This document shows, in pieces, positions 2,241 through 53,996 of a stretch of DNA of 64,000 nt (within the stretch, counting starts at the first letter, position 1; every line of letters starts with the position of its first letter). The notes below the pieces were generated by a model, which did no database searches, was not told where the DNA came from, and was given only the letters and a program-made list of their open reading frames with translations. The translations under genes were made by a program, and so were the position numbers. Where the stretch lies: contig MFDN01000005.1 of assembly GCA_001776935.1 (NCBI GenBank), positions 2,505 to 66,504 of the forward strand, read 5' to 3'. The stretch is from Candidatus Daviesbacteria bacterium RIFCSPLOWO2_01_FULL_39_23 (GTDB lineage Bacteria; Patescibacteriota; Microgenomatia; Daviesbacterales; UBA10151).

Positions 2241-3437
2241 GTGGTAAAATCCAAGCTTATGCGCACTAAAATTAATCTTCGCGATTTTAACTCTGCCCAA
2301 AACAGGCGGGAATTTCTGGAAAAAGAACTGGATATTAGACTGGATAATATTGGCTGTTTCAGTTTTCCGGAAGATCAGGCTGTAGACAGAAACATCGAGA
2401 ACCTGATCGGAGCCACTCAAATCCCCTTGGGAGTTGCCGGACCATTATTGTTAGCGAAAAGCGAAAAGCGAAAAGCGAAAAGCTATTTTATTCCCCTTGC
2501 TACCACCGAAGGTGCCCTTGTAGCTTCGGTTTCCAGGGGATGCAAGGCAGTAAACGAGGCTGGCGGAGCAATGGTATTTGTGGAAAATACCGGGATTACG
2601 CGGGGCCCTGTTTTTAAAGCAGATAATTTAGAAAAATCCTTTAAAGCAAAAGCCTGGATCGAAAAAAATTTTAAAACCCTGGCCAAAGCAGCTGAAAGCA
2701 CTTCATCTCACCTGAAACTGCTTAAAGCAGAATACCAAATAACAGGCAGGAATTTATTTGTCAGGTTTTATTTTGATACTGCTGATGCCATGGGCATGAA
2801 TATGGCAACCATTGCCACTGGAGAAATGGTGAAAATAATTGAAAACAAAACAGGCGTCAAATGCATATCTTTATCAGGCAACTTTTGTATTGACAAAAAA
2901 CCTTCATATTTAAATTTTATTCTGGGAAGGGGCAAAAAGGTTTGGGCCGAAAGCATCTTACCTAAAAAGCTGGTTATTGATACTTTAAAAGTTACTCCTC
3001 AGGAAATTGCGGAAGTAGTTGAAAGAAAATGCCACATAGGCTCTATCATATCCGGATCTTTAGGCTACAACTCTCATTTCGCTAACATCGTTGCCGCTAT
3101 TTTTGCCGCCACCGGTCAGGACCTGGCTCATGTAGTAGAAGCAAGTATGGGAGTTACTTCAGCTGAGGTGCTGGAAAATGGGGACCTTTATTTTTCCATC
3201 TATCTCCCCTCTTTGGTAGTCGGCACTGTAGGAGGAGGCACGCATTTACCTACCCAGCAGGAAGCTTTAAAAATAATGCAGGTTTGTGATGTGCTAGAAT
3301 ATTCTCAAGTTGTCGGGGCAGCAGTATTGGCAGGCGAGCTTTCACTTTTGGCCTCACTAGCAGAAGGCTCGCTGATAAAAGCACATAGACAATTAGGAAG
3401 GAAGGAGCGAAGTCGCGAGTCAACCAAAGCAATTTGA
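2241..3437 (+). CDS. HMG-CoA reductase (class I-like)
   Basis: 398 aa. ENLIGxxQIPLGVAGPL and DAMGMN motifs. In-frame (agcgaaa)x4 repeat encoding AKSEKRKAKS at 2455-2486. Confidence 0.85.
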   Translation: MVKSKLMRTKINLRDFNSAQNRREFLEKELDIRLDNIGCFSFPEDQAVDRNIENLIGATQIPLGVAGPLLLAKSEKRKAKSYFIPLATTEGALVASVSRGCKAVNEAGGAMVFVENTGITRGPVFKADNLEKSFKAKAWIEKNFKTLAKAAESTSSHLKLLKAEYQITGRNLFVRFYFDTADAMGMNMATIATGEMVKIIENKTGVKCISLSGNFCIDKKPSYLNFILGRGKKVWAESILPKKLVIDTLKVTPQEIAEVVERKCHIGSIISGSLGYNSHFANIVAAIFAATGQDLAHVVEASMGVTSAEVLENGDLYFSIYLPSLVVGTVGGGTHLPTQQEALKIMQVCDVLEYSQVVGAAVLAGELSLLASLAEGSLIKAHRQLGRKERSRESTKAI

Positions 3438-3554
3438 GGATTTTGTGTGCAGTCCTACTTCACAAAATTCTCATATAGCAAGGCTAGAGAGAACTATCAT
3501 GTTGCAGTATTAACTAACCGAGCGGTGCTTTGTGACCGCGACGAGCGACCATCT

Positions 3555-4598
3555 ATGACTGGAATTGTTTCATACGGAGTTTACATACCAAAATACAGAA
3601 TAAAGCCCTCACAAGTGGCTCATGCCTGGGGCAAAGAAGTCAAAGGGGTAGAAAACTCTTTGGGAGTTTTTGAAAAAGCAGTAGCATCCGTAGATGAAGA
3701 TGCAGTAACTTTAGCAGTTGAGTCAAGTTTTAGAGCCTTAACAAACGGGCAAATTGAACCGGAAAAAATTGGCGCTATCACAATTGGTTCTGAATCACAC
3801 CCTTATGCTGTTAAACCCTCCTCTACCACAGTAGCCGGCATTTTAGGTATGCAGGGTGAATATCTGGCAGTTGATTTGGAATTTGCCTGTAAAGCCGGCA
3901 CTGCCGGAATACAACTCCTTTCCTCTTTGGTTGAAGCCAAAAAAGCCCAATATTGCCTGGCTATAGGTTCAGATGTGGCACAGGCCAAGCCTTCGGATGT
4001 TTTGGAATATACTGCCGGATCTGCTGCTGCAGCTTTTATCTTAGGCCGTGATAACTTGATTGCCGAGCTTTTAGATTTTACCTCTTATTCATCTGATACC
4101 CCTGATTTTTGGAGAAAAGACAACGAAAAATTCCCTTCCCATGCCGGCAGGTTTACCGGCGGTCCGGCTTATTTTGCCCATGTTGGCAAAGCCTCAGAGC
4201 TTATATTTGAAAAAACTAAAATGAAACCTTCTGATTTTGATTATGCTGTTTTTCATATGCCAAACGGAAAATTCCCCAAAGAGGCAGCCAGAAAATTAGG
4301 CTTCAGTGAACAACAGCTTAAACCAGGCTTTGTGGTACCTTTTATCGGTAACCCCTACTCTGCCTCATCAATGGTAGGACTTGCAGCTACTCTGGATATT
4401 GCCAAAAATGGTGATAAGATTTTTGTCTGTTCCTACGGCTCAGGAGCAGGTGCTGATGCTTTTGTTTTTGAAGTAACAAAAAATATTACCGCTCACCAGA
4501 CTAAAAACAAAGAAAGTGTGGCAAAACAGATTAAGAATAAACAATATATAGACTATTCATTGCTGGCTAAGAATATTATTAGCAAGTATAGGATTTAA
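3555..4598 (+). CDS. HMG-CoA synthase, archaeal type
   Basis: Starts MTGIVSYGVYIPKYRI. Thiolase-fold condensing enzyme. The ORF-track start at 3447 is a GTG inside a 150-bp interspersed repeat, so the ATG at 3555 is preferred. Confidence 0.8.
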   Translation: MTGIVSYGVYIPKYRIKPSQVAHAWGKEVKGVENSLGVFEKAVASVDEDAVTLAVESSFRALTNGQIEPEKIGAITIGSESHPYAVKPSSTTVAGILGMQGEYLAVDLEFACKAGTAGIQLLSSLVEAKKAQYCLAIGSDVAQAKPSDVLEYTAGSAAAAFILGRDNLIAELLDFTSYSSDTPDFWRKDNEKFPSHAGRFTGGPAYFAHVGKASELIFEKTKMKPSDFDYAVFHMPNGKFPKEAARKLGFSEQQLKPGFVVPFIGNPYSASSMVGLAATLDIAKNGDKIFVCSYGSGAGADAFVFEVTKNITAHQTKNKESVAKQIKNKQYIDYSLLAKNIISKYRI

Positions 4599-4742
4599 GA
4601 AGAGTCAAGAGACTAGCAACTAGAGTCAAGGAAAATAATACTTGACCCATTCGGCTTCGCCAAATCTGACTTGGCTTCGCTCAGGGTCATCCTGAGTATA
4701 GTCGAAGGATTGACTCTAGACTCTAGCGACTAGTCACTAATT

Positions 4743-5894
4743 ATGAAGATTAAAGTTTTAGGTACCGGTTTAACAAAATTTGGAGAGCTTTGGGACAAAT
4801 CACTTTTTGATTTGGCACAGGAGGCAGCTTTGGAAGCTATTGGCGATTCGCATTTAGCTGTTAACCAAATTGAAGCTGTCTTTGTGGCTAATATGTTATC
4901 CGGGAAATTATCCGGACAAGATCACCTGGGAGCAGTCGTAGCTTCTAATTTAGGCTTATCCGGCGCCTCTTTTAGAATAGAAGCAGCCTGCGCTTCCGGG
5001 GGCCTGGCAGTACACTTGGCCATCCAATCACTTCTTTCAGGCACTTATAAAAAGGTCCTGGTTGTGGGAGTGGAAAAAATGACTGATTCCCCTGCTTCAG
5101 AGATTACTTCTGCTTTAATGGGCGCTGGCTCGCAGACAGAAAGGCTGGCCGGCTTAACTTTTCCCGGCCTGTATGCTTTGATGGCCAAAGCCCATATGCA
5201 AAAATACGGCACCACCAAAAATGAACTGGCTCAGGTGGCTGTTAAAAACCACTATCATGCTTCTTTAAACGATAAAGCCCAATTTCCCTATGAAGTTACA
5301 GAAGAAAAGGTCCTGGAAAGTTCCTGTATCTGCACCCCTTTTACCCTGTTTGATGCCTCCCCTGTTTCAGACGGCGCAGGAGCTTTGGTTTTATCAGCAG
5401 ATGATGAACCTGGGAGCCTGCCGGCCGGCAGGCAGGTTTTCATCAGCGGGTCAGCTGTTGCAACCGACACCATTGACCTTGCCAACAGAAAATCATTGAC
5501 AGAAATTACAGCAACTCAAACAGCTTCTCAGAAAGCCTTAAAACAGGCAGGAGTGGAAATAAAAGATATTAAAGTGGCAGAAGTTCACGATTGCTTTACC
5601 ATCGCGGAAATTTTGGCCATGGAAGATTTGGGTTTTTGCCAAAAAGGCGAAGGAGGCAGGTTTATTGCCAAAGGCACCACTAAACTGGGAGGGAAATTAC
5701 CCGTAAACACCTCAGGAGGCTTAAAAGCCTGCGGTCATCCGGTGGGAGCTACCGGTGTTAAACAAATTGTAGAAATAACTAATCAATTAAGGGGAAATTT
5801 GGGCAAAAGGCAGGTCAAAGGAGCCAATGTCGGCCTAACTCAAAATGTGGGCGGAACAGGCGCAACAGTAGTAGTACATGTACTACAAAATTAA
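4743..5894 (+). CDS. Acetyl-CoA C-acetyltransferase (archaeal-type thiolase)
   Basis: 383 aa. Thiolase fold with catalytic Cys in the EAACASGG region. Sits next to HMG-CoA synthase and DUF35, as in archaeal mevalonate clusters. Confidence 0.8.
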   Translation: MKIKVLGTGLTKFGELWDKSLFDLAQEAALEAIGDSHLAVNQIEAVFVANMLSGKLSGQDHLGAVVASNLGLSGASFRIEAACASGGLAVHLAIQSLLSGTYKKVLVVGVEKMTDSPASEITSALMGAGSQTERLAGLTFPGLYALMAKAHMQKYGTTKNELAQVAVKNHYHASLNDKAQFPYEVTEEKVLESSCICTPFTLFDASPVSDGAGALVLSADDEPGSLPAGRQVFISGSAVATDTIDLANRKSLTEITATQTASQKALKQAGVEIKDIKVAEVHDCFTIAEILAMEDLGFCQKGEGGRFIAKGTTKLGGKLPVNTSGGLKACGHPVGATGVKQIVEITNQLRGNLGKRQVKGANVGLTQNVGGTGATVVVHVLQN

Positions 5895-5998
5895 CAATTT
5901 ACAATGTACAATTTACAATTGAATTCACAATCTATATTTTTGTTTTCTGCTTTGTACATTCTACATTTTACATTGTACATTGAAGGCAACGCCGACCT

Positions 5999-6298
5999 AT
6001 GAACAGCCCGGTACAAATTTGGAGATCGCATAAAAACTTACATAACTACCTTGGGAAACAAGGCAGGCTTTTGGTGTGGACTAAAATATTCATTGCCCCC
6101 TCCGGTTTTGAGCATCAAACTCCCTATATTGTTGGAATTGTAGAATTTGCTGACAAAGAAAAATTGCCTTTGCAGATTGTAGATTGCGAAGAAGAATCGT
6201 TAAAACCAAATCAAAAAGTTAAAGTAGTTATTAGAAAAATAGGCAAAGTAAAATCAGAAGATGTGATTGAATACGGGCTCAAAGCAAAACCTTTATGA
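5999..6298 (+). CDS. DUF35 OB-fold scaffold protein of the thiolase/HMG-CoA synthase complex
   Basis: 99 aa, OB-fold-like. Its stop overlaps the mvk start by 4 nt. Its position matches the archaeal thiolase-HMGCS-DUF35 trio. Confidence 0.55.
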   Translation: MNSPVQIWRSHKNLHNYLGKQGRLLVWTKIFIAPSGFEHQTPYIVGIVEFADKEKLPLQIVDCEEESLKPNQKVKVVIRKIGKVKSEDVIEYGLKAKPL

Positions 6299-7308
6299 AG
6301 ACCTCCGGCAGGACAATTACAGTTTCTGCCCCGGGAAAAATACACCTGCTTGGCGAACATTCTGTAGTATATGGGAAGCCTGCTTTGCTTACGGCTATAA
6401 ATCTCAGGACCAATGTCATCCTGACGGCAAAACCCGAAGGATCTCTCGCGAATGCAAGCTCCTCAGATGAACTGAGAGATTCTTCTCCGCCCACAGCTAC
6501 GCAGTTGCTGGCGGATCAGAATGACAAAATAAAGGCAATAATTGAACCTATCGTTAAAAAATATCTGAAAATAAAACAAATCCCGCCCTATAAATTGGAA
6601 ATTTCCTCAGAATTTCCTTTAGGAGCAGGGCTTGGCTCTTCTGCTGCCATATCTTCGGCATACATCGGCGCGCTCTTAACTTTTCTTAAAATTAAATGGG
6701 ACTTACACCTTATCAATAAACTTTCCTTTGAGGCTGAAAAAGCTTTTCATGGAAATCCTTCGGGCGCAGATAATGCCGCAGTAGTGTTTGGGGGCTTAAT
6801 CTGGTTTAGAAAAGAAACTACTGATTTAAAAATAATCCAACCGATTAACTCCCCTGTCCCTGCCAATATAGCTGGAAATTTTATACTGATTAACACCGGA
6901 AAACCAAAAGAAACTACCAAAGAAATGGTGGGATTAGTAAAATTAAGAGTCAAGAGTCAAGAGTCAAGAGTCAAGAAAATATTTGATCATCAGGAACAAT
7001 TAGTTAAAGAGCTTTTACTGACCATTCAATGCGGGAATGAAAAGGAATTAATCAAAATTATCAGGGCAGGAGAGAAAAACTTGGAAAAGATGGGTGTAGT
7101 TTCTTGGTATGTTCAATCTATTATCAGAAAAATAGAAAAAGCCGGAGGTGCTGCAAAAGTGTGCGGAGGAGGAGGAAAAACCAAAGCAACAGGTGTACTT
7201 TTGGCTTATCATCCGGAAAAATCAGTACTGGAAAAAATTGCAAAATCATATGATCTACCTTATTATACGGTTGTCTTGGGAGCCGAAGGCCTGCGAAAGG
7301 AAATATAA
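6295..7308 (+). CDS. mvk: Mevalonate kinase (GHMP kinase)
   Basis: N-terminal SAPGKIHLLGEHSVVYG and PLGAGLGSSAA GHMP motifs. Carries an in-frame MITE-like insertion (6414-6526) encoding ...SSPPTATQLLADQND..., and an (agagtca)x4 repeat. Confidence 0.8.
   Translation: MKTSGRTITVSAPGKIHLLGEHSVVYGKPALLTAINLRTNVILTAKPEGSLANASSSDELRDSSPPTATQLLADQNDKIKAIIEPIVKKYLKIKQIPPYKLEISSEFPLGAGLGSSAAISSAYIGALLTFLKIKWDLHLINKLSFEAEKAFHGNPSGADNAAVVFGGLIWFRKETTDLKIIQPINSPVPANIAGNFILINTGKPKETTKEMVGLVKLRVKSQESRVKKIFDHQEQLVKELLLTIQCGNEKELIKIIRAGEKNLEKMGVVSWYVQSIIRKIEKAGGAAKVCGGGGKTKATGVLLAYHPEKSVLEKIAKSYDLPYYTVVLGAEGLRKEI
6414..6526. mobile_element. MITE-like repeat (tgtcatYctga...tcaggatgaca family) inserted in-frame in mvk
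   Basis: Terminal motifs tgtcatcctgacg ... tcagaatgaca. Internal gccagcaactgcgtagctgtgggcggagaag is shared with the copies at 17271-17370 and 17685-17812. Confidence 0.7.
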
Positions 7309-7356
7309 CCACTTGATTGTACGATCGCACACTAAAATGATAAAAATGAAGCTAAA

Positions 7357-8358
7357 ATGAAAAGAGAAATAACAATATCAGCCCCCGGAAAATTAATGTT
7401 ACTTGGTGAACATGCTGTTGTTTATAACAGGCCCTGTATTGTTACAGCAGTCGGACAAAGAATGAGAGCTACAGTTGAGCTAACAGAGAAATCAACTTTC
7501 CAGCTTAATGCCCCGGATGTACAAATTGCAAATTATCAAAAGCCAATGGATCAATTAGGAATTGGCGATCTTCCCAAAGGAGCTAAATTTGTAGAAATTG
7601 CAGTGGTGAATTTCTTAAGGTCACTCCTTGAGTACTCAAGGAGTGACCTTGTAAAACCGGGAGTCAAGGTTTCTACGACCTCAGAATTTTCTTCCCAATT
7701 CGGTTTTGGCTCTTCCTCCGCCTCTACTGTTTGCGTAATTAAAGCCTTATCAGAAATTACAGAAGCAAATCTTAATAACAAAGAGATCTTTGATCTCGCG
7801 TACAAGACAGTGCTTGATATACAGGGCAAAGGTTCGGGATTTGATGCAGCAGCAGCCACCTTTGGAGGCACACTTTATTTTGTAACCGGAGGAAAAACAA
7901 TTGAACCTTTAAACATTGACTCCCTTCCTTTAATAGTTGGTTACAGCGGCATTAAAGCAGATACTGTCACCTTAATAAATCAGGTAAAAGAAAAAGCCGG
8001 GGGAAACCCCCAAGCTGTAGAAGATATTTATGACAATATTGGCAAGCTGGTAGAACAAGCCAAACTCGCTCTTTTGGGTAAAGATTGGCAAAGCTTAGGT
8101 GAGCTTATGAATGAAAACCAAAAACTACTAACCAAACTTGGAGTAAGCATAAACAAGCTTGATGATATGATTGCTGCCGCCCTTAAAGCAGGGGCATATG
8201 GGGCAAAGCTGTCCGGCGCCGGCGGCGGAGACTGTATGATAGCTTTAGCGCCGGAGGATAAGGTGCAAGCCGTCAAAGATGGAATAACCTCTGTCGGCGG
8301 CCAGATAATTGAGGTAGAAACGAATGCAGAAGGAGCTAGAATAGAGACGAGGGACTAG
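7357..8358 (+). CDS. GHMP kinase, probable phosphomevalonate kinase
   Basis: ISAPGKLMLLGEHAVVY and GFGSSSA motifs. Lies between mvk and mvd. Contains a perfect 34-bp palindrome in-frame (7617-7650). Confidence 0.65.
   Translation: MKREITISAPGKLMLLGEHAVVYNRPCIVTAVGQRMRATVELTEKSTFQLNAPDVQIANYQKPMDQLGIGDLPKGAKFVEIAVVNFLRSLLEYSRSDLVKPGVKVSTTSEFSSQFGFGSSSASTVCVIKALSEITEANLNNKEIFDLAYKTVLDIQGKGSGFDAAAATFGGTLYFVTGGKTIEPLNIDSLPLIVGYSGIKADTVTLINQVKEKAGGNPQAVEDIYDNIGKLVEQAKLALLGKDWQSLGELMNENQKLLTKLGVSINKLDDMIAAALKAGAYGAKLSGAGGGDCMIALAPEDKVQAVKDGITSVGGQIIEVETNAEGARIETRD
7617..7650. repeat. Perfect 34-bp palindrome within a coding region
   Basis: aaggtcactccttgagtactcaaggagtgacctt equals its own reverse complement. 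Encodes LRSLLEYSRSDLV in-frame, and the same peptide appears in the antisense ORF. Confidence 0.9.
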
Positions 8359-8373
8359 AGTCAAGAGACAAGT

Positions 8374-8730
8374 ATGAGAAACAACAACGGCTACAGAAAT
8401 TTAATCGCTTGGCAAAAAAGTAATCTACTAGCCCATTTTATTTATGATTTAACTGCAAAATTCCCCAAGGATGAGCTTTTTGGAATGACTTCACAAATGC
8501 GTCGCGCAGCTCTATCAGTTTGTGCTAATATTGCAGAGGGTTATAGCCGAAGAGGCTTAAAGGATAGAAGACATTTCTATCAAATGGCAATGGGATCTTT
8601 AACGGAACTGGAATTTTTTATTGATTTTGCTTATGAAAGAAAATTTATTAGTCATGTTGATTATGAGAAAATATTAGAGATACATATGGAAACAGCTCGA
8701 GTTTTAAGCGGCTTGTTAAAATCCACTTGA
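8374..8730 (+). CDS. Four-helix-bundle protein (23S rRNA IVS protein family, Avd-like), second copy
   Basis: 118 aa with QMRRAALSVCANIAEGYSR. Paralog of 183..548. Flanked by gagtcaag-family inverted repeats. Inserted between the PMK-like kinase and mvd. Confidence 0.75.
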   Translation: MRNNNGYRNLIAWQKSNLLAHFIYDLTAKFPKDELFGMTSQMRRAALSVCANIAEGYSRRGLKDRRHFYQMAMGSLTELEFFIDFAYERKFISHVDYEKILEIHMETARVLSGLLKST

Positions 8731-8758
8731 CTCTAGACTCTAGCGACTAGTCACTACT

Positions 8759-9739
8759 ATGAAAGCAACAGCCATTGCGCCGTCAAACATTGCTTTTACA
8801 AAATATTGGGGCCGCAAGGATGAAACCTTAAGATTGCCTGAAAATGGCAGCATTTGTATGTGTTTAAGCAATCTCCTGACCACTACTACTGTAGAATTTT
8901 CCCAAGGCTACCAGCAAGATGAAGTTACCATCAACGGAGGGGGGCTTGAGGCGGGTGAAGCTAAGCGGATTATCAAACATCTGGATAGAATCAGAAAACC
9001 GGCTGGCATTGACCGGAAAGCCAAAGTGGTATCAAATAATAATTTTCCCACTGGTACAGGTCTTTCTTCATCTGCTTCCGGTTTTGCCGCTTTAACTCTT
9101 GCTGCCAGCAAAGCCGCTGGTTTAGAGCTATCCGAGAAAGAATTATCAATACTGGCCCGCCAGGGCTCCGGCTCAGCTTGCAGATCTATCCCTTCAGGGT
9201 TTGTGGAATGGTTGGATGGAGACACCTCTGAGACTTCCTACGCTATCCAAATCTTCCCTCCTGGCCATTGGGCTATCATAGACATAGTGGCAGTTGTCTC
9301 AGAAGGAAAAAAAGAAGTTCCAACTTCGCAAGGAATGCAAAAAACACATTCTTCTCCATTTATGGCTGTCAGACTTTCCAAAATGAAAGAAAAAAATGAA
9401 AAAGTCAAAAAACTTATCAAAGAAAAAAATTTCAAAGAATTTGGGGAATTACTGGAACAGGAAGCCTTAGAACTTCACACCATTATGCTCACTCAAATTC
9501 CTCCGCTTATTTATTGGACTCCCGGGACTTTAAGGATAATGAAATTAACACCCTTTTGGAGACAGGAAGGAATACCTGTTTATTTTACCATCAATACCGG
9601 ACAGGATATTCACTTAATTTGTGAGTCAAAAAATGTTGAAAAAGTTAAATCCAAATTATCAGGGCTGGATTTTGTCAAAGATATTATTGTTAATGCTCCC
9701 GGAGAAGGCGCCAGACTTTCAAAAACCCACCTTTTTTAA
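8759..9739 (+). CDS. mvd: Diphosphomevalonate decarboxylase
   Basis: 326 aa. AFTKYWGRKDETLRLPENGSICM N-terminus and GTGLSSSASGFAAL GHMP motif. Confidence 0.8.
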   Translation: MKATAIAPSNIAFTKYWGRKDETLRLPENGSICMCLSNLLTTTTVEFSQGYQQDEVTINGGGLEAGEAKRIIKHLDRIRKPAGIDRKAKVVSNNNFPTGTGLSSSASGFAALTLAASKAAGLELSEKELSILARQGSGSACRSIPSGFVEWLDGDTSETSYAIQIFPPGHWAIIDIVAVVSEGKKEVPTSQGMQKTHSSPFMAVRLSKMKEKNEKVKKLIKEKNFKEFGELLEQEALELHTIMLTQIPPLIYWTPGTLRIMKLTPFWRQEGIPVYFTINTGQDIHLICESKNVEKVKSKLSGLDFVKDIIVNAPGEGARLSKTHLF

Positions 9740-13425: not shown

Positions 13426-13440
13426 AATCTAGTCAATCTC

Positions 13441-13592
13441 AAAAGCGAGTCGCGAGTCTATCAAAGCAATCTGAAGATTTTATGTGCAGATAATCATCAT
13501 AAAATCTCCACATAGCGAGGCTAGAGAATATTGTAAATGTTACAGATATTACTAGCCGAGCGGTGCTTTGTGACCGCGACGAGCGATCATTA
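13441..13592. repeat. About 150-bp interspersed repeat (copy 2; copy 1 at 3403-3554)
   Basis: High identity to 3403-3554 (gcgagtcgcgagtc...catagcRaggctagaga...ccgagcggtgctttgtgaccgcgacgagcga). Contains the gcggt-gctttgtg-accgc hairpin. Confidence 0.8.
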
Positions 13593-15834: not shown

Positions 15835-17673
15835 CTACTTCTTGTATTGCTGCTTATACATCTCTATTAACTCTTTCACAGTTGTTGCATCCTCAGCTTT
15901 TTTGTCCGCTTCCCTAAATTGAACAAGTCTTGGAAATCTCAAAGCATAGCCGGGTTCTGTCTCTGTTTTTCCTGCAGTATGCACCGGCGAACGGGTTATT
16001 TCATCAGCCAATACCTCTATAACAAGTCTTGGCTCCACCCAAACACTGGGAATGATTAAAGAATTCACCCTGGCCGGCTTACTTTTTACTTTTAACTTTT
16101 GACTTTTTACTTCAATACCCCTCCACTCCTCATCAGAGAGTCCTGTGCCGATTTTAGAAACTGTCACAAATTCGTCTTTTTTATCATCATAAACTCCCAC
16201 CAAAAGCGACCCTGCCCCAAATCCCGATCTTTTGCCTTTACCAAAAATATATCCCAAAATTACACAATCTATAGTATCTTTTAATTCCCCTGAAGAATGC
16301 CTTTTTAGTTTAACCCAGTTAAAATTCCTGGCTCCTGCTTCATATTTTGAGTCAGGTCTTTTAACCACCAATCCCTCAAGCCCCAAAGATATTGCCTCAT
16401 CCAAAAGATCCTGCAATCTTTGCGCTTCACTCACCATCTCCCCTTCTTCCACTACTAAAGTGTCTCCATCTGCCACTACAGCTTTTAGCTCTTTTAATCT
16501 TTCAGTAAGCGGTAAATCAATTAAAGATATCCCATCTTTATATAAGATATCAAAACAAAAAGCCCTCAGAGGAATCTTTTTTGTCATTTCTGCGATTCCA
16601 TACTTTCTGCGTCTTTGTGTAGTCTCCTGAAAAGGCAAAAACTCATCCGAAGCAGGGTTATAGCCTATGGCTTCACAATCCAAGATGGCTGATTTTGCTT
16701 TAATTTGTTTTATTGCCCCTTCGGCAATTTCCGGAAACATCGGGGTAGTTTCTTCCAGGTTTCTCGAAAACAATCTTACTGTCTGATGACTGACAGCTGA
16801 CGACTGACGTCTATCTATGTGTATTTGTACCCTAAAACCATCCAATTTTCTTTGGGCATTTACTTCTCCCAGCTTTTCAATTACTGTCTTGCCGGAAGGT
16901 AATCTTTCAGCAAGCTGCGACCGAATCGGCCTGCCTACTTGTATTTCCAGCTTTTCTACAGCTTCCAATCCGCCCTGCCATAAAGTTTCTCCAATTAAGC
17001 CTAAATCAGATACCCTGTTATAGCCTCCCTCTAAAAGTTTACGCTTTGACCTGTCCCCCAGCTTTAATTTGGCAAAAGCATCCAAAATAGTCGGGTCTCC
17101 GATCCCTAAACGGGAAACTCCCAAAGGAATCCTGACTAAATGCTTTGCAGACACCGCATCCATTTGTTTTAATAGTCCTACCAAAAGTTGTTGTTTTTTC
17201 TCTACAGTTCCCTCCCCTGTTGTTTTGGCAATCTGAGTTAGAATATGAAACACCTGACTTACGTTTAATTTGTCATTCCGATCCGCCAGCAACTGCGTAG
17301 CTGTGGGCGGAGAAGAATCTCTAGATTTACTTTTTGAATCTTGAGATCCTTCGCTACGCTCAGGATGACACTTTATATCACTAAGTTGCTGGACTACTAA
17401 TCCCAAATCCCCTACTTTTCCATATTCTTTTAAAACTTCTTCCCTCCCGATGCCGTAGGCTTTGGCAATACTTGCAGCCACTGTTTTTTCTGCCATCCCC
17501 ATTTCCAAAGGTTCATAAAACGGAGCAACTCTGCCTTGAATTAAATAGGAAACTTTGCCAATTTCTTCTGTTTTAATTTCTCTAAACAACTCGGTTAAAA
17601 TATCAATCAATAAAAGCCTTGAGGAAGTTGCTTCTAGTTTTTCAAAATATTCTGCTAGTTTAGAAAATAACAT
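15835..17673 (-). CDS. ATP-dependent DNA ligase (archaeal/eukaryotic type)
   Basis: MLFSKLAEYFEKLEATSSR N-terminus, KLDGFR adenylation motif, and EGLVVK and OB-domain motifs. The track start at 17739 is a GTG inside a MITE, so the ATG at 17673 is preferred. Two in-frame repeat insertions. Confidence 0.85.
   Translation of the reverse strand: MLFSKLAEYFEKLEATSSRLLLIDILTELFREIKTEEIGKVSYLIQGRVAPFYEPLEMGMAEKTVAASIAKAYGIGREEVLKEYGKVGDLGLVVQQLSDIKCHPERSEGSQDSKSKSRDSSPPTATQLLADRNDKLNVSQVFHILTQIAKTTGEGTVEKKQQLLVGLLKQMDAVSAKHLVRIPLGVSRLGIGDPTILDAFAKLKLGDRSKRKLLEGGYNRVSDLGLIGETLWQGGLEAVEKLEIQVGRPIRSQLAERLPSGKTVIEKLGEVNAQRKLDGFRVQIHIDRRQSSAVSHQTVRLFSRNLEETTPMFPEIAEGAIKQIKAKSAILDCEAIGYNPASDEFLPFQETTQRRRKYGIAEMTKKIPLRAFCFDILYKDGISLIDLPLTERLKELKAVVADGDTLVVEEGEMVSEAQRLQDLLDEAISLGLEGLVVKRPDSKYEAGARNFNWVKLKRHSSGELKDTIDCVILGYIFGKGKRSGFGAGSLLVGVYDDKKDEFVTVSKIGTGLSDEEWRGIEVKSQKLKVKSKPARVNSLIIPSVWVEPRLVIEVLADEITRSPVHTAGKTETEPGYALRFPRLVQFREADKKAEDATTVKELIEMYKQQYKK
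17271..17370. mobile_element. MITE-like repeat inserted in-frame in the DNA ligase gene
   Basis: tgtcattccgatccgccagcaactgcgtagctgtgggcggagaagaatctctagat...gagatccttcgctacgctcaggatgaca. Encodes ...SRDSSPPTATQLLADRNDK... Confidence 0.75.
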
Positions 17674-17684
17674 AAAAACCTCTC

Positions 17685-17812
17685 TGTCATTCTGATCCGC
17701 CAGCAACTGCGTAGCTGTGGGCGGAGAAGAACCTCCCACGAATGTGGGTATTAGGTATCCAGAATAAATCTGGAGATCCTTCGTCCCGATTAAATCAGGA
17801 CTCAGGATGACA
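17685..17812. mobile_element. MITE-like repeat immediately upstream of the ligase start codon
   Basis: Same family (tgtcattctgatccgccagcaactgcgtagctgtgggcggagaaga ... ctcaggatgaca). Its end lies 11 nt from the ATG, next to a GAGAGG Shine-Dalgarno-like sequence. Confidence 0.7.
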
Positions 17813-17881
17813 TTTGCGGTATCTGGATTGTATTAAATTCAGAGAGTATTGTAAAATAAATCACAGATACTTTTAACTTAT

Positions 17882-21152: not shown

Positions 21153-24100
21153 CTAGTTTCCGACATACTCATCCCAACTTTTAATTTGTAGATCTTCTAC
21201 TTTTTTGCTAGCCAGGCTGGTTATTAAAAGCTCTGCTGCCTGCAGGTTAGTTATCAAAGGAATACCCAAATCCACACAATTCCTTCTTAAAATAAATCCG
21301 TCAGTTTCGCCTTTTTCCACCCCTCCCTCAGATATATTTATCACAAGATCAATCCCCTCGTTTAGAAGACTTAGCACAGAAGGTTCTCTTTTTTCTGCAA
21401 TTTTATAGATTCTGGTATTTTCAATGCCATGACTTTTTAGAAACTCTGAAGTATGGTGGGTGGCATATATTTTTAAACCTAAATTAATAAGCTGTTTTGC
21501 AGAAAGCAGCAAATCAAGTTTATTTTTATCCCCTCCCAAAGACAGCAATACTCCTTTTTTGGGTATTTTAAACCCAACAGCCAAAATGGCTTTAAGATAA
21601 GCCTCCTGCAGGTCATCCCCAAAACAAGCCACCTCCCCTGTTGAGGACATTTCCACCCGGAGTCTCGGATCCGCTCCTTTAATCCGGGAAAAAGAAAACT
21701 GCGGAGCTTTAACTCCCACATAATCTAAATCTATGGTCTTAAATCCATTGGTAAGTTTTTCTCCCATCATAACTTTTGTGGCCAATTCCACAAAGTTATA
21801 TCCTGTTACTTTGGAGACAAAAGGGAAAGACCTGGAAGCCCGGAGGTTTAATTCAATCACCTGTATTTTATTGTCTTTTGCCAAAAATTGAATATTGAAA
21901 GGGCCATTGATATTTAAAGCCTGAATAATCTTTTTGGTGGCCTCTTTTACCTTCCTGACAGTCTCAAGATAAAGCCTTTGAGGCGGCAAAACAATGGTGG
22001 CATCACCTGAGTGTACGCCGGCATTTTCCACATGTTCTGAGATGGCATAAATCAAAAGTTCCCCGCTTTGCCCTACTCCGTCAACTTCAATTTCTTTCGC
22101 CCCTTCTACAAACTTGGAAATTACCACCGGATGTTCGGGAGAAATATCCGAGGCGCTTTTTAAGTGCTTGGTTAGCTCAATAGAAGAATATGCCACATTC
22201 ATGGCAGAACCGGATAACACATAAGACGGCCTGACTAAAACCGGGTAACCGATTTTCTTGGCAAATGTTAAAGCCTCATCTACTCCTTTTAAGCTCTGCC
22301 ATCCCGGCTGTTCTATTCCTAGTGTGTCTAAAAGCTTAGAAAACTTATTACGGTCTTCTGCCCGGTCAATATTTTCAGGGGAAGTTCCCAGTATTTTATA
22401 ACCGGCCTTAAAACAAGCGATTGCCAAATTGTTGGGTACCTGTCCCCCAAAACTTAAAACAAGGTTGGCATTTTCTTCAATATCATAAATGTCACTAACT
22501 CGCTCAAAGGTCAGCTGTTCAAAATACAATTTATCCGCGCTGTCAAAATCTGTAGAAACTGTTTCCGGATTACAATTTATAATAATTGTTTCTAACCCTT
22601 TTTCCCTTAATGTTTTGGCTGCTGTTACACAGCACCAATCAAATTCCACAGAAGAACCAATCCTGTAAGGGCCGGAGCCAAGGACAATTGCTTTTTCGCT
22701 TTTCGCTATTAGCTTTTCGCTGTTAGCTTCTGATTCTTCTCCATGATATGTCAGATATAAATAATTTGTTTTAGCCGGGAATTCTCCTGCTAAAGTATCA
22801 ATATGTTTTACAACCGGTACTATGCCATGTTTCTTTCTGAATTCTCTAACTTTTTCTTGGGTGGTTTTAAATGCTTTAGCCAGTACTTTATCTGAAAAAC
22901 CTAATCTTTTTGCATCAAGAACGCTTTTCGCTGTTAACCCGCCTGCGACGCTATGCGTAGCATTGCGGGCAGGCTGTTGGCTTTTAGCTGCTAATGGCGA
23001 ATGGCCAATAGCTAATAGCTTTTTCTCAAACTCCACCATCTCTTTTATCTGATACAAAAACCATGGATCAATCCCTGTGGCCTGATAAATATCTTCTACT
23101 GATTCACCTTTACTAAGCCTTTTGGCAATGGCAAAAAGCCGCTCTGTGGTGGGCAAAAGCTGTGTATCATCTGTACCGTTTTCTAAAAGCCCATCCTGCC
23201 CTGTTTCAAGCATCCTGATGGCTTTTTGCAACACTTCCGGAAAAGATCTGCCTATTGCCATCACCTCTCCCACGCTTTTCATCTCCGAACCGATCGCTTC
23301 TTTTGCTCCCGCAAACTTTTGCAAATCCCACCTTGGAAGCTTAATCACAATATAATCCAAAGCCGGCTCAAAAAAGGCTGAAGTCGATAAAGTAACTCTA
23401 TTTTTAAGCTGCGGCAGATTGTAACCCAAGGCAATTTTGGCAGCAATATAAGCCAAAGGATAACCTGTGGCTTTAGAGGCTAAAGCTGAAGAACGCGACA
23501 ACCTGGCATTAACCTCTATCACCCGGTAATCATTATTCTCCGGATTTAGGGCAAATTGGATATTGCACTCCCCTACAATCCCCAAATACTCAATCACTTG
23601 TAGAGATAACTTGCGTAAAAAATGATACTGGTAATTATTTAAAGTTTGCGAAGGAGCTACCACAATACTCTCACCGGTATGAATCCCCAAAGGATCCATA
23701 TTTTCCATATTACAAACAGTGATTTTATTACCCTTATTATCCCGGACCACTTCATACTCCACCTCTTTCCAATGTTTTAAATATTCTTCAATAGCAATCT
23801 GCGGAGCCTGACTCAAAGCACTGGTGACCATTTTAATAAATTCCTCCTTACTTTCAACTACTCCTGAACCTAAACCTCCTAAAGAAAAACCGGATCGTAT
23901 AAGAAGCGGATACTCTAACTTCTCAGCAATTTCCAGAGCCTGATTCAAACTTTTGGCAAAACCGCCGACGGGAACTTTGACGCCAATTTTTGCAAGTTCC
24001 CCGGCAAAAAGCTCCCGGTCTTCCGTAATTTCTATACTTTTTACAGGAGTACCTAAAACCTTAACGCCATACTTTTTAAAAATCCCGTTCTTTTCCAAAG

Positions 24101-24383
24101 CCAAACCGCAATTTAAGGCAGTCTGCCCGCCAAAACTTAAAAGTATCGCATCGGGTTTTTCCTTTTTTATCACTTTTTCAACAAATAATGGAGTTACCGG
24201 TAAAAAATAAATCTTACGCGCAAGCTCTTTGGAGGTTTGAATAGTGGCAATATTAGGGTTTATTAAAACCGATTCAATGCCTTCTTCTTTTAGGGCTTTT
24301 AAAGCTTGCGAGCCTGAATAATCAAACTCGCCTGCTTCCCCGATTTTTAATGCTCCTGAACCTAAAACTAGTACTTTTTTCAT
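21153..24383 (-). CDS. carB: Carbamoyl-phosphate synthase large subunit
   Basis: 1076 aa with two ATP-grasp halves and an MGS-like C-terminal domain. In-frame repeat insertions at about 22680-22735 and 22920-23035 (encoding ...GHSPLAAKSQQPARNATHSVAGGLTA...). Confidence 0.95.
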   Translation of the reverse strand: MKKVLVLGSGALKIGEAGEFDYSGSQALKALKEEGIESVLINPNIATIQTSKELARKIYFLPVTPLFVEKVIKKEKPDAILLSFGGQTALNCGLALEKNGIFKKYGVKVLGTPVKSIEITEDRELFAGELAKIGVKVPVGGFAKSLNQALEIAEKLEYPLLIRSGFSLGGLGSGVVESKEEFIKMVTSALSQAPQIAIEEYLKHWKEVEYEVVRDNKGNKITVCNMENMDPLGIHTGESIVVAPSQTLNNYQYHFLRKLSLQVIEYLGIVGECNIQFALNPENNDYRVIEVNARLSRSSALASKATGYPLAYIAAKIALGYNLPQLKNRVTLSTSAFFEPALDYIVIKLPRWDLQKFAGAKEAIGSEMKSVGEVMAIGRSFPEVLQKAIRMLETGQDGLLENGTDDTQLLPTTERLFAIAKRLSKGESVEDIYQATGIDPWFLYQIKEMVEFEKKLLAIGHSPLAAKSQQPARNATHSVAGGLTAKSVLDAKRLGFSDKVLAKAFKTTQEKVREFRKKHGIVPVVKHIDTLAGEFPAKTNYLYLTYHGEESEANSEKLIAKSEKAIVLGSGPYRIGSSVEFDWCCVTAAKTLREKGLETIIINCNPETVSTDFDSADKLYFEQLTFERVSDIYDIEENANLVLSFGGQVPNNLAIACFKAGYKILGTSPENIDRAEDRNKFSKLLDTLGIEQPGWQSLKGVDEALTFAKKIGYPVLVRPSYVLSGSAMNVAYSSIELTKHLKSASDISPEHPVVISKFVEGAKEIEVDGVGQSGELLIYAISEHVENAGVHSGDATIVLPPQRLYLETVRKVKEATKKIIQALNINGPFNIQFLAKDNKIQVIELNLRASRSFPFVSKVTGYNFVELATKVMMGEKLTNGFKTIDLDYVGVKAPQFSFSRIKGADPRLRVEMSSTGEVACFGDDLQEAYLKAILAVGFKIPKKGVLLSLGGDKNKLDLLLSAKQLINLGLKIYATHHTSEFLKSHGIENTRIYKIAEKREPSVLSLLNEGIDLVINISEGGVEKGETDGFILRRNCVDLGIPLITNLQAAELLITSLASKKVEDLQIKSWDEYVGN

Positions 24384-24394
24384 AATGTCCCTTC

Positions 24395-24477
24395 TGTCAT
24401 TCTGAGCGTAGCGAAGAATCTCTTGACTTGTTCAAGGTTCCAAACTAGATCCTTCGGCTAATCGCCTCAGGATGACA
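24395..24477. mobile_element. MITE-like repeat filling the carA-carB intergenic region
   Basis: tgtcattctgagcgtagcgaagaatctc...gatccttcggctaatcgcctcaggatgaca. Abuts the carA stop codon and ends 11 nt from the carB start. Confidence 0.75.
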
Positions 24478-25572
24478 CTAAAGAAAGCTAATAAATTCAT
24501 CAAACAAGTATCCACCATCAACCGGCCCCGGATTTGCTTCCGGATGAAACTGCACAGCCATAAATGGTTTTTTCTTATGCCTGATCCCCTCATTCGTGCC
24601 GTCATTTAAATTCACAAACCATTCCTGCCAACCTGAACCCATAGACTTGATATCTACTGCAAAACCATGATTTTGAGAAGTAATAATAGCCTTCTTTGTA
24701 ATTTGATCTTGTATGGGTTGATTTTGGCCCCGATGGCCAAATTTCAGTTTGTATGTATTTCCACCTGCTGCTAAAGATAAAATCTGACTGCCTAAACAGA
24801 TTCCAAAAGTAGGGATATTTTTGTTTAGAATCTGCTCTACATTTTCTATGGTTTGTTTTGCCTGTTTTGGGTCTCCGGGACCATTGGAAATAAGCACCCC
24901 GTCAAAATCAATTTTTGCATCCAGTGGATTAAAATCCCAAGGCACCCGGGTAACTTTCACCCCTCTTTTCACCAAACTCCTGATGATATTTTCCTTCGCC
25001 CCGCAATCTATTAAAACAATGTTTTTCTTCCCTGATCCATAAACTTCTACCTCTTTACAGCTTACATAAGGCAGGATATTTTCTTTGTTGGGATCATAAG
25101 TAAAGTCGCCAGTCGCTAGAGTCGAGAGTCTAGACTTTGTGTTACTTGACTCTTGACTCTTGACTCTTGACTCTACCTCTATCCGGCCCAGCATCACTCC
25201 ATGTTCCCGGAGCTTTATAGTCAAAGCCCGGGTGTCAATGCCTTGCAAAGCCGGGATTTTTTCCTCTCTTAACCATTCTCCTAATGTTTTTTCACTTTCA
25301 AAATGCGACGGATGATCAATATAATTTTGCACAATCAATCCTTTTACCTGTATCTTTTTCGATTCCCAAAAATCCTTTTTTGGAACCCCGTAATTGCCTT
25401 GCAAAGGATAGGTTAAAACCAAAATCTGACCAAAATAAGAAGGATCTGTTAAAGCTTCAGGATAACCCACCATACTGGTATTAAATACCACTTCACCAGA
25501 CGTGCTGCCTTCAAATCCAAAACTTTTTCCTAAAAAAACTGTCCCATCGGACAGTGTCAGTTTACCATCCAT
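24478..25572 (-). CDS. carA: Carbamoyl-phosphate synthase small subunit (glutamine amidotransferase)
   Basis: 364 aa. GICLGSQ amidotransferase Cys motif. In-frame (gagtcaa)n insertion encoding VESRVKSQESSNTKSRLSTLA. Confidence 0.9.
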   Translation of the reverse strand: MDGKLTLSDGTVFLGKSFGFEGSTSGEVVFNTSMVGYPEALTDPSYFGQILVLTYPLQGNYGVPKKDFWESKKIQVKGLIVQNYIDHPSHFESEKTLGEWLREEKIPALQGIDTRALTIKLREHGVMLGRIEVESRVKSQESSNTKSRLSTLATGDFTYDPNKENILPYVSCKEVEVYGSGKKNIVLIDCGAKENIIRSLVKRGVKVTRVPWDFNPLDAKIDFDGVLISNGPGDPKQAKQTIENVEQILNKNIPTFGICLGSQILSLAAGGNTYKLKFGHRGQNQPIQDQITKKAIITSQNHGFAVDIKSMGSGWQEWFVNLNDGTNEGIRHKKKPFMAVQFHPEANPGPVDGGYLFDEFISFL

Positions 25573-25586
25573 AATATTTAAAATTC

Positions 25587-26519
25587 TTACAGTCTACCCA
25601 AAACTAAAGCCAATAATGCTTCCCGAATATATAAACCATTCTTTGCCTGCTTAAAATAAATGGCATTTTCATGACTATCCAAAGCCGGATCGATCTCGTT
25701 CACCCGGGGCAAAGGATGCATCAGTTTTACACCTTTATCCAGATATTTTCTAAAAGGGGCTCCCAGCACAAACAAATCTTTTACTTTTTCATACTCTTTT
25801 AAATCATCAAACCTTTCTTTTTGCACACGGGTTTGATACAAAAAATCCGCATCCAAATCATCCGGAAGTTTCTCAAATTCCTCAAACTCTACTCTTCTTT
25901 CTTTTAATATTTTTAAAAATTCCTCCGGCATTTTAAGCTTCGGGTGAGAAATAAAAATCTGCTTAACCTTAAATTGACTTAAAGCCAAAGATAACGCATG
26001 AACAGTCCTGCCATATTTTAAATCTCCCATCAAAGCTACTTTAATTCCGTCAATCTTGCCTGCTTCTTTCATAATGGTGTATAAATCCAGCATTGTTTGG
26101 GTAGGATGCTGGTTAGGCCCGTCTCCGGCATTTATCACCGGAATATCTGCCACCTCTGCTGCTTCTTTGGCAGCGCCGGACTCCGGATGCCGCATAATTA
26201 AAACATCGGCATAGGCGTTCATAATCCGAATCGTATCTCGGAAACTTTCGCCTTTATGAATAGAGGTAGATTCAGGGTCATTAAAACCGATTATTCCCAT
26301 GCCGATTTTTTGGGAAGCAGAGCGGAAAGATTGTTCTGTGCGGGTGGATTGTTCAAAAAACAAAACAGCGGCGATTTTACCCTGGGCAATTTCATAATTG
26401 GACCTGTCCCTTTTAACAAAAGTCGGATCAAATCTCTTGGCTTCAGAAAGCACGTATAATAATTCTTCCCTTGAGAAGTCGTTTATATCTATAATATCTC
26501 TGCCTTTAAATGTTTTCAT
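25587..26519 (-). CDS. pyrB: Aspartate carbamoyltransferase catalytic subunit
   Basis: STRTR and HPLP motifs. 310 aa. Confidence 0.9.
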   Translation of the reverse strand: MKTFKGRDIIDINDFSREELLYVLSEAKRFDPTFVKRDRSNYEIAQGKIAAVLFFEQSTRTEQSFRSASQKIGMGIIGFNDPESTSIHKGESFRDTIRIMNAYADVLIMRHPESGAAKEAAEVADIPVINAGDGPNQHPTQTMLDLYTIMKEAGKIDGIKVALMGDLKYGRTVHALSLALSQFKVKQIFISHPKLKMPEEFLKILKERRVEFEEFEKLPDDLDADFLYQTRVQKERFDDLKEYEKVKDLFVLGAPFRKYLDKGVKLMHPLPRVNEIDPALDSHENAIYFKQAKNGLYIREALLALVLGRL

Positions 26520-26520
26520 A

Positions 26521-26669
26521 TGTCATTCTGGCCTGTCCAGAATCCTTTCTGTCATTTTGTTGTCATTCTGATCCCGATGTATATCGGGAGAAGAATCTCT
26601 AGATTAATTCTAGATACATCTTAAACAAGTTAAGAGATCCTTCTGGTCCAATGGACCATCAGGATGACA
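26521..26669. mobile_element. Composite or nested MITE-like repeats directly upstream of the pyrB start codon
   Basis: tgtcattctggcc..., ctgtcattttg..., tgtcattctgatcccgatgt...agaagaatctctagat...gagatccttctggtccaatggaccatcaggatgaca. Begins 1 nt from the pyrB ATG. Confidence 0.7.
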
Positions 26670-26705
26670 ATTTACGTTTTAATCATTTTACGTAAATTGT
26701 CAAAA

Positions 26706-26740
26706 AAAACCGCCCCTCCAAGGCGGTGTTAAATTCTATT
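26706..26740 (-). terminator. Rho-independent terminator (minus strand)
   Basis: The minus strand reads aacaccgccttggaggggcgg followed by a T8 run. Lies downstream of orf 26876..27805. Confidence 0.55.
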
Positions 26741-26875
26741 AAACTCTACATTAAAAATGCGTTTTACCATAACTAAATACTCAAACTTATTGCTAGTTTA
26801 GGTTAAAACTCCCCTTCTGTCAATACTGAGTGAAACCGAATGTGTCAAGTTTTTAAATACGTTTGACTAATCACC

Positions 26876-37105: not shown

Positions 37106-37126
37106 ACTTCTCTAATATCATCCTGA

Positions 37127-37242
37127 TAGTCCATTGGACCAGAAGGATCTCTCAACCCGCCGAAGGCGAGGCTCGCCTCTGGCGGCTTATTTGAGATACT
37201 ACTGACATTCGTCAGAGATTCTTCGCTACGCTCAGAATGACA
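37127..37242. mobile_element. MITE-like repeat (intergenic, between ABC ATPase and aldolase)
   Basis: tcatcctgatag...ggaccagaaggatctctc...ccgccgaaggcgaggctcgcctctggcgg...cttcgctacgctcagaatgaca. Internal GC-rich hairpin. Confidence 0.7.
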
Positions 37243-38276: not shown

Positions 38277-38306
38277 TATATCGGGACTTGTCGCCTCAGA
38301 ATAACA

Positions 38307-53928: not shown

Positions 53929-53996
53929 ACAATTATGGGAATTTTAGCACAAGTGGCCTGAAATTGCCAGCTCAATAAATCAGGATGACAATTATT

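Follow-up and report, generated by a model that had tools for sequence, protein, structure and literature searches.

Palindromic REP-like dimers beside start codons in a compact Candidatus Daviesbacteria genome

Repetitive extragenic palindromic (REP) sequences of the CGTC type are short hairpin units composed of a CGTC tag (TGTC or CCTC are allowed), an 8-9 bp stem starting with AT, a 4-5-nt loop and a 3-nt CCA tail (PMC3733652). They are arranged predominantly as inverted dimers, occur as in-frame intragenic copies (Rickettsia palindromic elements RPE-4/6; a DNA ligase) and have no dedicated transposase, and published REPs are mostly found downstream of genes, no more than 20 bp from 3' ends (PMC3733652). 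The Correia/NEMIS elements of Neisseria are co-transcribed, can supply promoter boxes and form RNase III substrates (PMC10969869). Here, a 64,000-nt stretch from Candidatus Daviesbacteria bacterium RIFCSPLOWO2_01_FULL_39_23 (contig MFDN01000005.1, positions 2,505 to 66,504; hereafter the window, whose numbering is used throughout) is found to carry six short inverted-repeat elements, one of which, copy C (17685-17812, minus strand), is lodged between the promoter and the ATG of an ATP-dependent DNA ligase gene. Candidatus Daviesbacteria is a Microgenomates lineage of the Candidate Phyla Radiation (CPR), and the host is a tiny-genome groundwater bacterium. We know of no earlier description of CGTC/RPE-type repeats in this phylum.

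The elements fit inverted dimers of palindromic units tagged CGTC or TGTC, a REP-type repeat of the CGTC superfamily, an assignment made from published feature lists and not from consensus sequence. Their proximity to start codons is probably, in the main, a matter of survivorship, with REP-type dimers persisting only in permissive positions of a compact, largely leaderless genome. Genes around the elements were identified by direct sequence reading and Pfam. The window was chosen because of its start-codon pattern and is thus a pre-selected sample for placement statistics; it is compared with loci of Daviesbacteria relatives (L001, L204, L205, L206, L209, L210, L211, L213, L214 and L215).

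Anatomy and family of the elements

The window contains the terminal motif TGTCATYCTGR 21 times, compared with 3.3 occurrences expected, and a gapped search recovers twelve head/tail modules, corresponding to six complete elements whose alignment shows invariant ends and invariant inner motifs. The copies therefore belong to one family, as an earlier note on this DNA had held. All six are inverted heterodimers, 83-149 nt in length and without coding capacity of their own, bounded by perfect 11-nt terminal inverted repeats (TGTCATYCTGA / TCAGRATGACA). The arrangement is identical in three independent assemblies (one from NCBI and two from the European Nucleotide Archive; 24 contigs with the same carA protein were read), which excludes an assembly artefact. 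The window also matches contig MFDX01000010.1 of GCA_001779775.1, and the Rifle time series includes at least 47 assemblies with this carA.

Each element consists of two inverted units. A unit opens with TGTC and ATyCT-GA and closes with GA-AGrAT and a short tail, a filler of variable sequence lying between. In the simple unit, TGTC-ATTCTGG-CCTGT-CCAGAAT-CC, the stem measures 7 bp and the loop 5 nt, and the tail is CC, as against 8-9 bp, 4-5 nt and a 3-nt CCA in the published units. In the canonical unit (ATTCTGAGCGAAGCGAAGAAT), 5 bp are followed by GA/AG and then by 2-3 bp; many loops are enlarged to 11-30 nt, and the tails are CTC or CC. Several units hold an extra hairpin nested between CTGA and GAAG. 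The window units are all tagged TGTC except for one TATC, and the relatives have both CGTC and TGTC. Stem variants across the Daviesbacteria loci comprise ATTCT/AGAAT, ATCCT/AGGAT, ATTGC/GCAAT, ATGCC/GGCAT and ATCCC/GGGAT, and single units also occur alone in related loci.

The stem positions covary. In an unbiased metagenome-scan sample, collected with a pattern allowing all four combinations, the Y/R position of the unit stem pairs as T-A in 78 cases and as C-G in 59, with 4 mismatched (Fisher 8e-35), so each unit is a hairpin under structural constraint. RNAfold favours pairing across the two units over the unit hairpins. However, pairing across the units of a heterodimer leaves C·A or G·U at the Y/R position; pairing inside each unit is perfect and shows covariation.

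A 30-nt hairpin (TCCGCC..GGCGGA) recurs inside these units. In the second unit of copy B, which lies within the ligase gene, it occupies 17290-17319 (TCCGCCAGCAACTGCGTAGCTGTGGGCGGA) in place of a 6-nt loop, the old head ATTCC being kept and mismatched to the new closing AGAAT. The same hairpin is present at 96-100% identity in copy A and in copy C, where it is nested in one unit. From its sequence, the loop swap in copy B looks like conversion between copies rather than cut-and-paste movement.

Among 64 complete dimers, a target-site duplication of at least 4 nt is found in 0/64, one of 3 nt in 2/64 and one of 2 nt in 9/64 (~4 expected), with none at the six window copies; the 64 share no flank consensus or target motif. 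The window open reading frames (ORFs) scanned contain no transposase domain, and no Y1_Tnp domain was found in the window. Rfam returned only a tRNA over its gathering threshold, with no credible sub-threshold match across the elements, and a literature search with literal element sequences gave unrelated primer matches only. The term MITE (miniature transposable element with inverted repeats), used in the earlier note, is thus a fair structural nickname, but it names the wrong family, given the missing duplications (at least 4 nt) and the CGTC/TGTC-tagged REP anatomy of the units.

The family is widely spread. The matches listed in the metagenome pattern scan come from DNA of 31-70% GC, and the dimers of this family-wide sample, to whose listed matches the figures apply, derive from unrelated organisms. 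Over 34 nt, an ATTGC-type unit shares 97% identity with unannotated intergenic stretches on plasmids of the alpha-proteobacteria Methylocystis and Methylosinus, and it is 85-91% identical to Novosphingobium and cyanobacterial plasmid DNA, and the window's own unit type matches plasmids of Planktothrix, Calothrix, Granulicella and Phocaeicola. Two other identities were considered. A ribozyme, suggested by a hammerhead-like CUGA...GAAG core, was rejected on the misfit of the core and the absence of an Rfam match. A spliced, intron-like element in the coding copies is unlikely, as both intragenic window copies keep the frame open and homologues encode the peptide.

Position of the copies and room at each site

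Copy C, an inverted dimer of TGTC-tagged hairpin units, is positioned downstream of the ligase promoter (TTTACA-17-TACAAT, 17827-17855, minus strand), which is conserved in every relative examined. The ligase coding sequence extends over 15835-17673 on the minus strand, its true ATG at 17673 being indicated by Pfam and homologues, and 11 nt (GAGAGGTTTTT) separate this ATG from the element. Within the spacer lies GAGAGG (17679-17684, minus strand), which resembles a Shine-Dalgarno (SD) sequence. The ligase reading frame is open across the whole of copy C (17674-17823: ...NVILSPDLIGTKDLQ...SSPPTATQLLADQNDREVFM), and for this reason two of three gene callers set the ligase start at a GTG inside the element (634 aa).

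Copy D (24395-24477, minus strand) is a dimer in the gap between carA (24478-25572, minus strand, Pfam) and carB (21153-24383, minus strand, Pfam). It abuts the carA stop TAG (24478-24480) at a distance of 0 nt and is followed by 11 nt (GAAGGGACATT) before the carB ATG (24383), with SD-like GAAGGG at 24389-24394 (minus strand). The copy shares the 11-nt spacing and the frame of copy C (...AQNDRRDIM) but includes a stop.

Upstream of pyrB (25587-26519, minus strand, Pfam), three pieces follow one another on the minus strand: a single unit, TGTC-ATTCTGG-CCTGT-CCAGAAT (26521-26543), 1 nt from the ATG at 26519; an orphan head, TGTCATTTTGT (26550-26560); and copy E, a full dimer in the pyrB leader (26561-26669). 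Beyond them, the leader proper (26701-26823, minus strand) comprises a promoter, TTGACA-17-TAAACT (26795-26823), a leader ORF, MVKRIFNVEFNRI* (26729-26770), and a terminator hairpin with T8 (26701-26727). A PyrR site was considered for the pyrB copy and set aside, Rfam giving no PyrR match and the leader resembling a leader-peptide attenuator. Copy F (37116-37242, minus strand) is a dimer located 10 nt before the ATG of an ABC-ATPase gene (37105) and 32 nt after an aldolase stop (37275).

The coordinates, gene identities and distances of 11, 11 and 1 nt given in the earlier note for ligase, carB and pyrB are confirmed, and 'upstream' is valid in the gene sense because all four genes lie on the minus strand. 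Copy D, abutting the carA stop, takes up 83 of the 94 nt of the carA-carB gap. Two details are to be amended: the pyrB block consists of the three pieces described rather than nested copies, and the list of start-adjacent copies, right in the three that it gave, had missed copy F.

The remaining two copies are intragenic. Copy B (17271-17370, minus strand) is an in-frame dimer within the ligase gene, encoding CHPERSEGSQDSKSKSRDSSPPTATQLLADRND, and copy A (6414-6526, plus strand) is in frame within a GHMP (mevalonate-kinase-like) gene (6295-7308). With 21 of 32 copies intragenic across the relatives, such insertion represents an RPE-like phenomenon in a CPR lineage. The ligase-loop dimer is common to the window, L214 (1801-1868) and L206 (10304-10382), and other Daviesbacteria ligase homologues have dimers of different subfamilies in the same loop, or none. 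A second ligase hot spot for dimers exists, and the same GHMP-kinase position is also occupied; the loci compared include L210 (21705-21793). A 69-nt dimer is in frame within carB in L204 (5999-6067), and in L206 (6511-6521) an SMC-like gene uses the TGA in a unit head (TGTCATCCTGA) as its stop codon. Two possible decayed units, both on the minus strand and kept outside the statistics, are seen elsewhere in the window: one (TGTTATTCTGAGGCGAC..., 38277-38306) fills the entire 30-nt gap between an FBPase stop and an aldolase ATG, and the other (TGTCATCCTGA...TCAGG, 53949-53990) is set 6 nt from the preceding stop and ~20 nt from the ftsH ATG that follows.

At each start-adjacent site, the relatives reveal how little room was available. 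The ligase ATG lies 6-7 nt past the -10 box in L206, L209 and L210, 6 nt in L215 (the closest relative) and 11 nt in L214. This makes the ancestral gene leaderless, or close to it. In L213 it is an inserted upstream ORF that begins 6-7 nt past the ligase -10 box. The divergent spacer at ligase measures 44-79 nt in total and holds two promoters. At the second site, six of six relatives (L001, L204, L205, L209, L210, L211) have carA and carB either overlapping or separated by no more than 28 nt. None of the relatives examined, the closest included, has the ligase or the carA-carB copy at the site in question.

The pyrB leader is kept across L001 (8920-9040), L204 (2390-2510), L205 (1410-1540), L209, L210 and L211, with the TTGACA-17-TAAACT promoter (in those loci whose reading extended that far upstream), a leader ORF of 12-14 codons, a TCCGCC..GGCGGA hairpin and seven or eight U. 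The arrangement resembles the pyrBI-type leader-peptide attenuator of E. coli, here in CPR bacteria. From the U-run to the pyrB ATG only 7-11 nt remain in the element-free relatives measured (L001, L205, L211). The intergenic DNA of L001 (carA 79%) is too diverged for exact empty-site mapping and is used for element presence or absence and for spacer length.

Since the free space amounts to ~6-28 nt and always adjoins the ATG, start-adjacent placement is explained without targeting or function: a copy that spares promoter, leader and coding sequence must lie within ~10 nt of the ATG. Coding sequence makes up a fraction of 0.93-0.94, and same-strand neighbours are separated by a median of 22-28 nt (93% and 28 nt in the window).

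The distribution of copies was surveyed in the window and the syntenic loci of seven other Daviesbacteria (~200 kb around one syntenic region), which together hold 32 elements, 21 intragenic and 11 intergenic. Units are dense in L206 (21 in 19 kb) and missing from L211. All four intergenic window dimers fall within 12 nt upstream of a start, at 1-11 nt. Outside the window, start-facing distances are 2 nt (pyrB, L204), 12 nt (ligase, L205) and 25, 24 and 17 nt (L206). Counting independent sites, including the window, 5/9 lie within 12 nt (P=0.009) and 8/9 within 25 nt (P=0.0005); among the five non-window sites, only one lies within 12 nt, which is not significant. Several copies abut stops (0, 1, 7, 28 and 32 nt), yet the same copies are within 25 nt of the next start. 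Nearness in the window thus exceeds a uniform-intergenic null, but across the family start distances are broad, with a median of ~80 nt and 7/49 within 15 nt (58 metagenome dimers, crude ORF calls), and most Daviesbacteria copies sit inside genes, so that the start-hugging described in the earlier note holds for the window and not for the family.

An unrelated two-copy repeat of ~150 nt (3399-3552 and 13436-13590; 79-87% identical), with internal hairpins and no Rfam match, also lies near starts: 2 nt separate one copy from the downstream ATG of a probable HMG-CoA synthase gene (3555), and the other, on the opposite strand, is ~10 nt from an inositol-monophosphatase ATG (13425).

Initiation, RNA folding and competing explanations

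An SD-like motif 6-18 nt upstream is present in only 10/58 window genes, and a -10-like TAnnnT box ends 5-9 nt before the start in 22/58 (for example 28436, 29526, 35006, 44532, 50489, 59820 and 62045), which points to initiation that is predominantly leaderless or non-SD in this organism, as read from sequence. Copies C and D precede two of the few genes that do have an SD-like motif (GAGAGG, GAAGGG); pyrB has none. The scarcity of such motifs and their absence at pyrB argue against a target directed to the ribosome-binding site. An insertion preference for sequence near this site, as put forward in the earlier note, finds no backing here, with 22/58 genes apparently leaderless and the flanks free of consensus.

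Because promoters lie upstream of copies C and E, and copies D and F stand between same-strand genes, the elements should be transcribed. A position in 5' untranslated regions (5'-UTRs), as in the earlier note's co-option reading, or in intercistronic RNA is in line with this, judging from conserved promoters upstream and co-transcribed neighbours. When folded as minus-strand RNA, copy C reaches -63 kcal/mol (z -5.7) and copy D -36.8 kcal/mol (z -2.95), with the SD-like motif and the AUG unpaired in both; copies E and F reach -56 kcal/mol (z -5.8) and -57 kcal/mol (z -3.8), respectively.

The survivorship explanation can be extended as follows. Units would spread by a mechanism that leaves no duplication and would land throughout the genome, at least some of them being altered by gene conversion between copies. 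Only two kinds of copy would then be kept by selection, because the genome is 93-94% coding, with short spacers and many promoters set against the ATG: in-frame copies in tolerant protein loops, which would account for about two thirds of the copies, and copies that occupy what little unconstrained sequence lies between a start and the promoter, terminator or stop codon before it. Selection as the filter, transcription through the elements and the effects on expression are what we infer from these patterns. A resident copy would be co-transcribed, and its RNA would form a multi-hairpin fold of very high stability just 5' of the start region; a gene that had been leaderless or translationally coupled would thereby acquire a leader. 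Compensation may account for the SD-like GAGAGG and GAAGGG that follow copies C and D. The two cases fit a structured leader insertion that creates a need for an SD sequence.

Several points weigh against survivorship. Under the null of uniform insertion over the intergenic positions of the element-free window, which ignores promoters, leaders and terminators, the probability of lying within 12 nt upstream of a start is 0.139 per copy, and 4/4 gives 3.7e-4. Among the non-window independent sites, 4/5 lie within 25 nt (P=0.03, marginal). The ligase dimer carries flanks of 8+11 nt in the window and 2+12 nt in L205 that have no counterpart in leaderless relatives. Repeat occupation of the same junctions, ligase -10/ATG and pyrB ATG-adjacent, could reflect targeting. 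In addition, the placement surveys rely on crude, simple ORF calls, and the 32 lineage elements come from ~200 kb, not from a whole genome.

The first alternative is an active target preference in which integration or copying favours the junction between promoter or transcription start and start codon (the open complex of leaderless promoters, or the AT-rich DNA beside a hairpin terminator), so that copies are placed and not merely retained. We consider it unlikely, if deserving of attention. In its favour, the 4/4 window copies exceed what the null predicts, and the ligase -10/ATG junction is occupied by independent dimers of different subfamilies, the ATYCT type in the window and the ATTGC type in L205, with the closer relatives L214 and L215 empty, as well as other insertions, namely heptamer repeats in L204 and 40 nt of other sequence in L211. 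The pyrB ATG-adjacent stretch likewise holds a unit in the window (1 nt) and in L204 (2 nt from the ATG), and the ligase-loop and GHMP-kinase protein sites are also reused by different subfamilies. However, the flanks show no sequence consensus, two thirds of the lineage copies are intragenic, start-hugging is absent from the family-wide sample, and published REPs lie near 3' ends (PMC3733652). Site reuse is equally expected if few sites are tolerated, and the independent sample is tiny.

Somewhat less probable again is co-option, the earlier note's second suggestion, in which dimers are kept for a useful RNA structure, whether through nuclease protection of the mRNA 5' end or of the upstream cistron, through carA/carB uncoupling or through tuning of initiation. 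The very stable folds with significant z-scores end just before an exposed SD and AUG, SD-like motifs are rare and yet present after copies C and D, and the copies lie downstream of conserved promoters. Precedents exist in Correia/NEMIS, ERIC and REP elements, which affect promoters, RNase III/E processing and mRNA stability (PMC10969869; PMC3733652), and by analogy the present elements could plausibly affect mRNA stability, processing or coupling. A further supporting case is found in L206 (14877-14958), where a unit (...TTCTGGACAAGCCAGAATGACA) contributes a -35-like box, TGGACA, at a spacing of exactly 17 nt from a downstream TACAAT box, itself 7 nt before the ATG of a leaderless thioredoxin/DsbA-like gene, forming a candidate hybrid promoter. 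On the other side, the genes concerned are functionally unrelated, covariation is a family property that extends to intragenic and distant copies and is hence silent on local function, and Rfam has no matching family. Moreover, the ligase and carA-carB copies are missing in every relative examined, the nearest included, so no conservation points to co-option. Both targeting of ribosome-binding sites and regulatory co-option are unproven.

A bolder combination, in which CGTC-type REP dimers home to promoter-, terminator- or stop-to-start junctions and make leaderless or translationally coupled genes leadered and SD-dependent, serving ultra-compact CPR genomes as a mobile switch of initiation mode, and possibly of mRNA stability as well, is regarded as doubtful. 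A classical MITE, an insertion sequence (IS) deletion derivative moved by a DDE transposase recognising the TGTCA...TGACA termini, is very improbable: the multiple non-coding copies of 83-149 nt with perfect 11-nt terminal inverted repeats (TG...CA) suit it, whereas the 64 copies without target-site duplication, the single units found alone, the independently covarying hairpin in each unit, the spread over DNA of 31-70% GC (matches listed), unlike a lineage-bound IS derivative, and the window ORFs scanned without a transposase domain do not.

If survivorship holds, the window offers a clean case of compaction and leaderless organisation dictating where selfish palindromic repeats persist; it would extend CGTC/RPE-type repeats and their in-frame habit (ligase, carB, mevalonate-pathway kinases) to the Candidate Phyla Radiation, and it would caution against taking start-codon adjacency in such genomes for a sign of regulation. 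Should targeting or co-option prove true instead, the repeats would represent a mobile rewiring of translation initiation and a handle on the spread of CGTC REPs without a known transposase.

Other window features and comparison with known repeats

The window contains further repeats and genes of note. Tandem arrays of heptamers (7/14 nt) are located at 1256-1360, 22683-22743, 22923-23020, 32977-33131, 39660-39854 and 42411-42473. Such arrays fill many spacers just upstream of starts (183, 1257, 4743, 5999, 8374, 8759, 19970 and 30875) and also occur inside coding genes. One intergenic array, 97 nt long (1264-1360), shows 87% complementarity to part of carB (22923-23019). The FtsH gene (50800-53928, 1042 aa) carries an intein with a LAGLIDADG endonuclease domain. 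Two genes for four-helix-bundle proteins of the 23S-rRNA-IVP / bAvd-like kind (183-548, 8374-8730) flank a complete mevalonate-pathway cluster (2241-9739) that encodes HMG-CoA reductase and synthase, thiolase, two GHMP kinases and a decarboxylase.

The heptamer repeats raised the suspicion of a cyanobacterial origin or of a Nezha or small dispersed repeat (SDR) identity, which was rejected, the carA and ligase relatives being Daviesbacteria. The SDRs of Nostoc, reportedly described by Elhai et al. in 2008, are very short hairpins within larger repeated contexts, in genomes rich in heptamer tandem repeats. The likeness would lie in the 30-nt TCCGCC..GGCGGA hairpin that replaces an existing unit's loop, and the organisms and sequences differ.

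Correia/NEMIS elements are similarly small inverted-repeat elements positioned directly upstream of genes (PMC10969869). Unlike the elements described here, they have TA target duplications and an IS-like origin, and their functional effects would apply here only by analogy. The REPINs associated with RAYT transposases (Bertels & Rainey 2011, PMC3116915) are closer in structure, with two inverted hairpins forming one element, no target duplication and singlets as remnants. They are GTAG-tagged and tied to a RAYT gene, in contrast to the TGTC/CGTC tag found here and the window, in which no Y1 transposase was seen. Rickettsia palindromic elements, as far as the account of Ogata et al. 2000 given in PMC10969869 extends, are in-frame palindromes in housekeeping genes of a reduced genome, at surface-loop-like positions, as here. 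Compared with that account, the Daviesbacteria host belongs to another phylum and the same family also fills 5'-UTRs and intercistronic spacers.

The closest resemblance is to the CGTC-tagged REPs (Di Nocera, De Gregorio & Rocco 2013, PMC3733652), which include Rickettsia RPE-4/RPE-6 and Neisseria dRS3. Shared features are an unpaired C/TGTC tag, an AT stem start and a short pyrimidine-rich tail; a prevalence of inverted dimers, including heterodimers, with structured spacers and a very wide phylogenetic spread; and in-frame intragenic copies, DNA ligase being among the published cases, with no associated transposase. The relation to CGTC-1 to CGTC-4 was assessed through published feature lists, not by consensus sequence. 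The elements differ from those published in their CPR/Microgenomates host, in the many loops enlarged by nested hairpins of 11-30 nt and in the roughly two thirds of copies that are intragenic. Unlike published REPs, which lie mainly within 20 bp of 3' ends, the intergenic copies here adjoin start codons.

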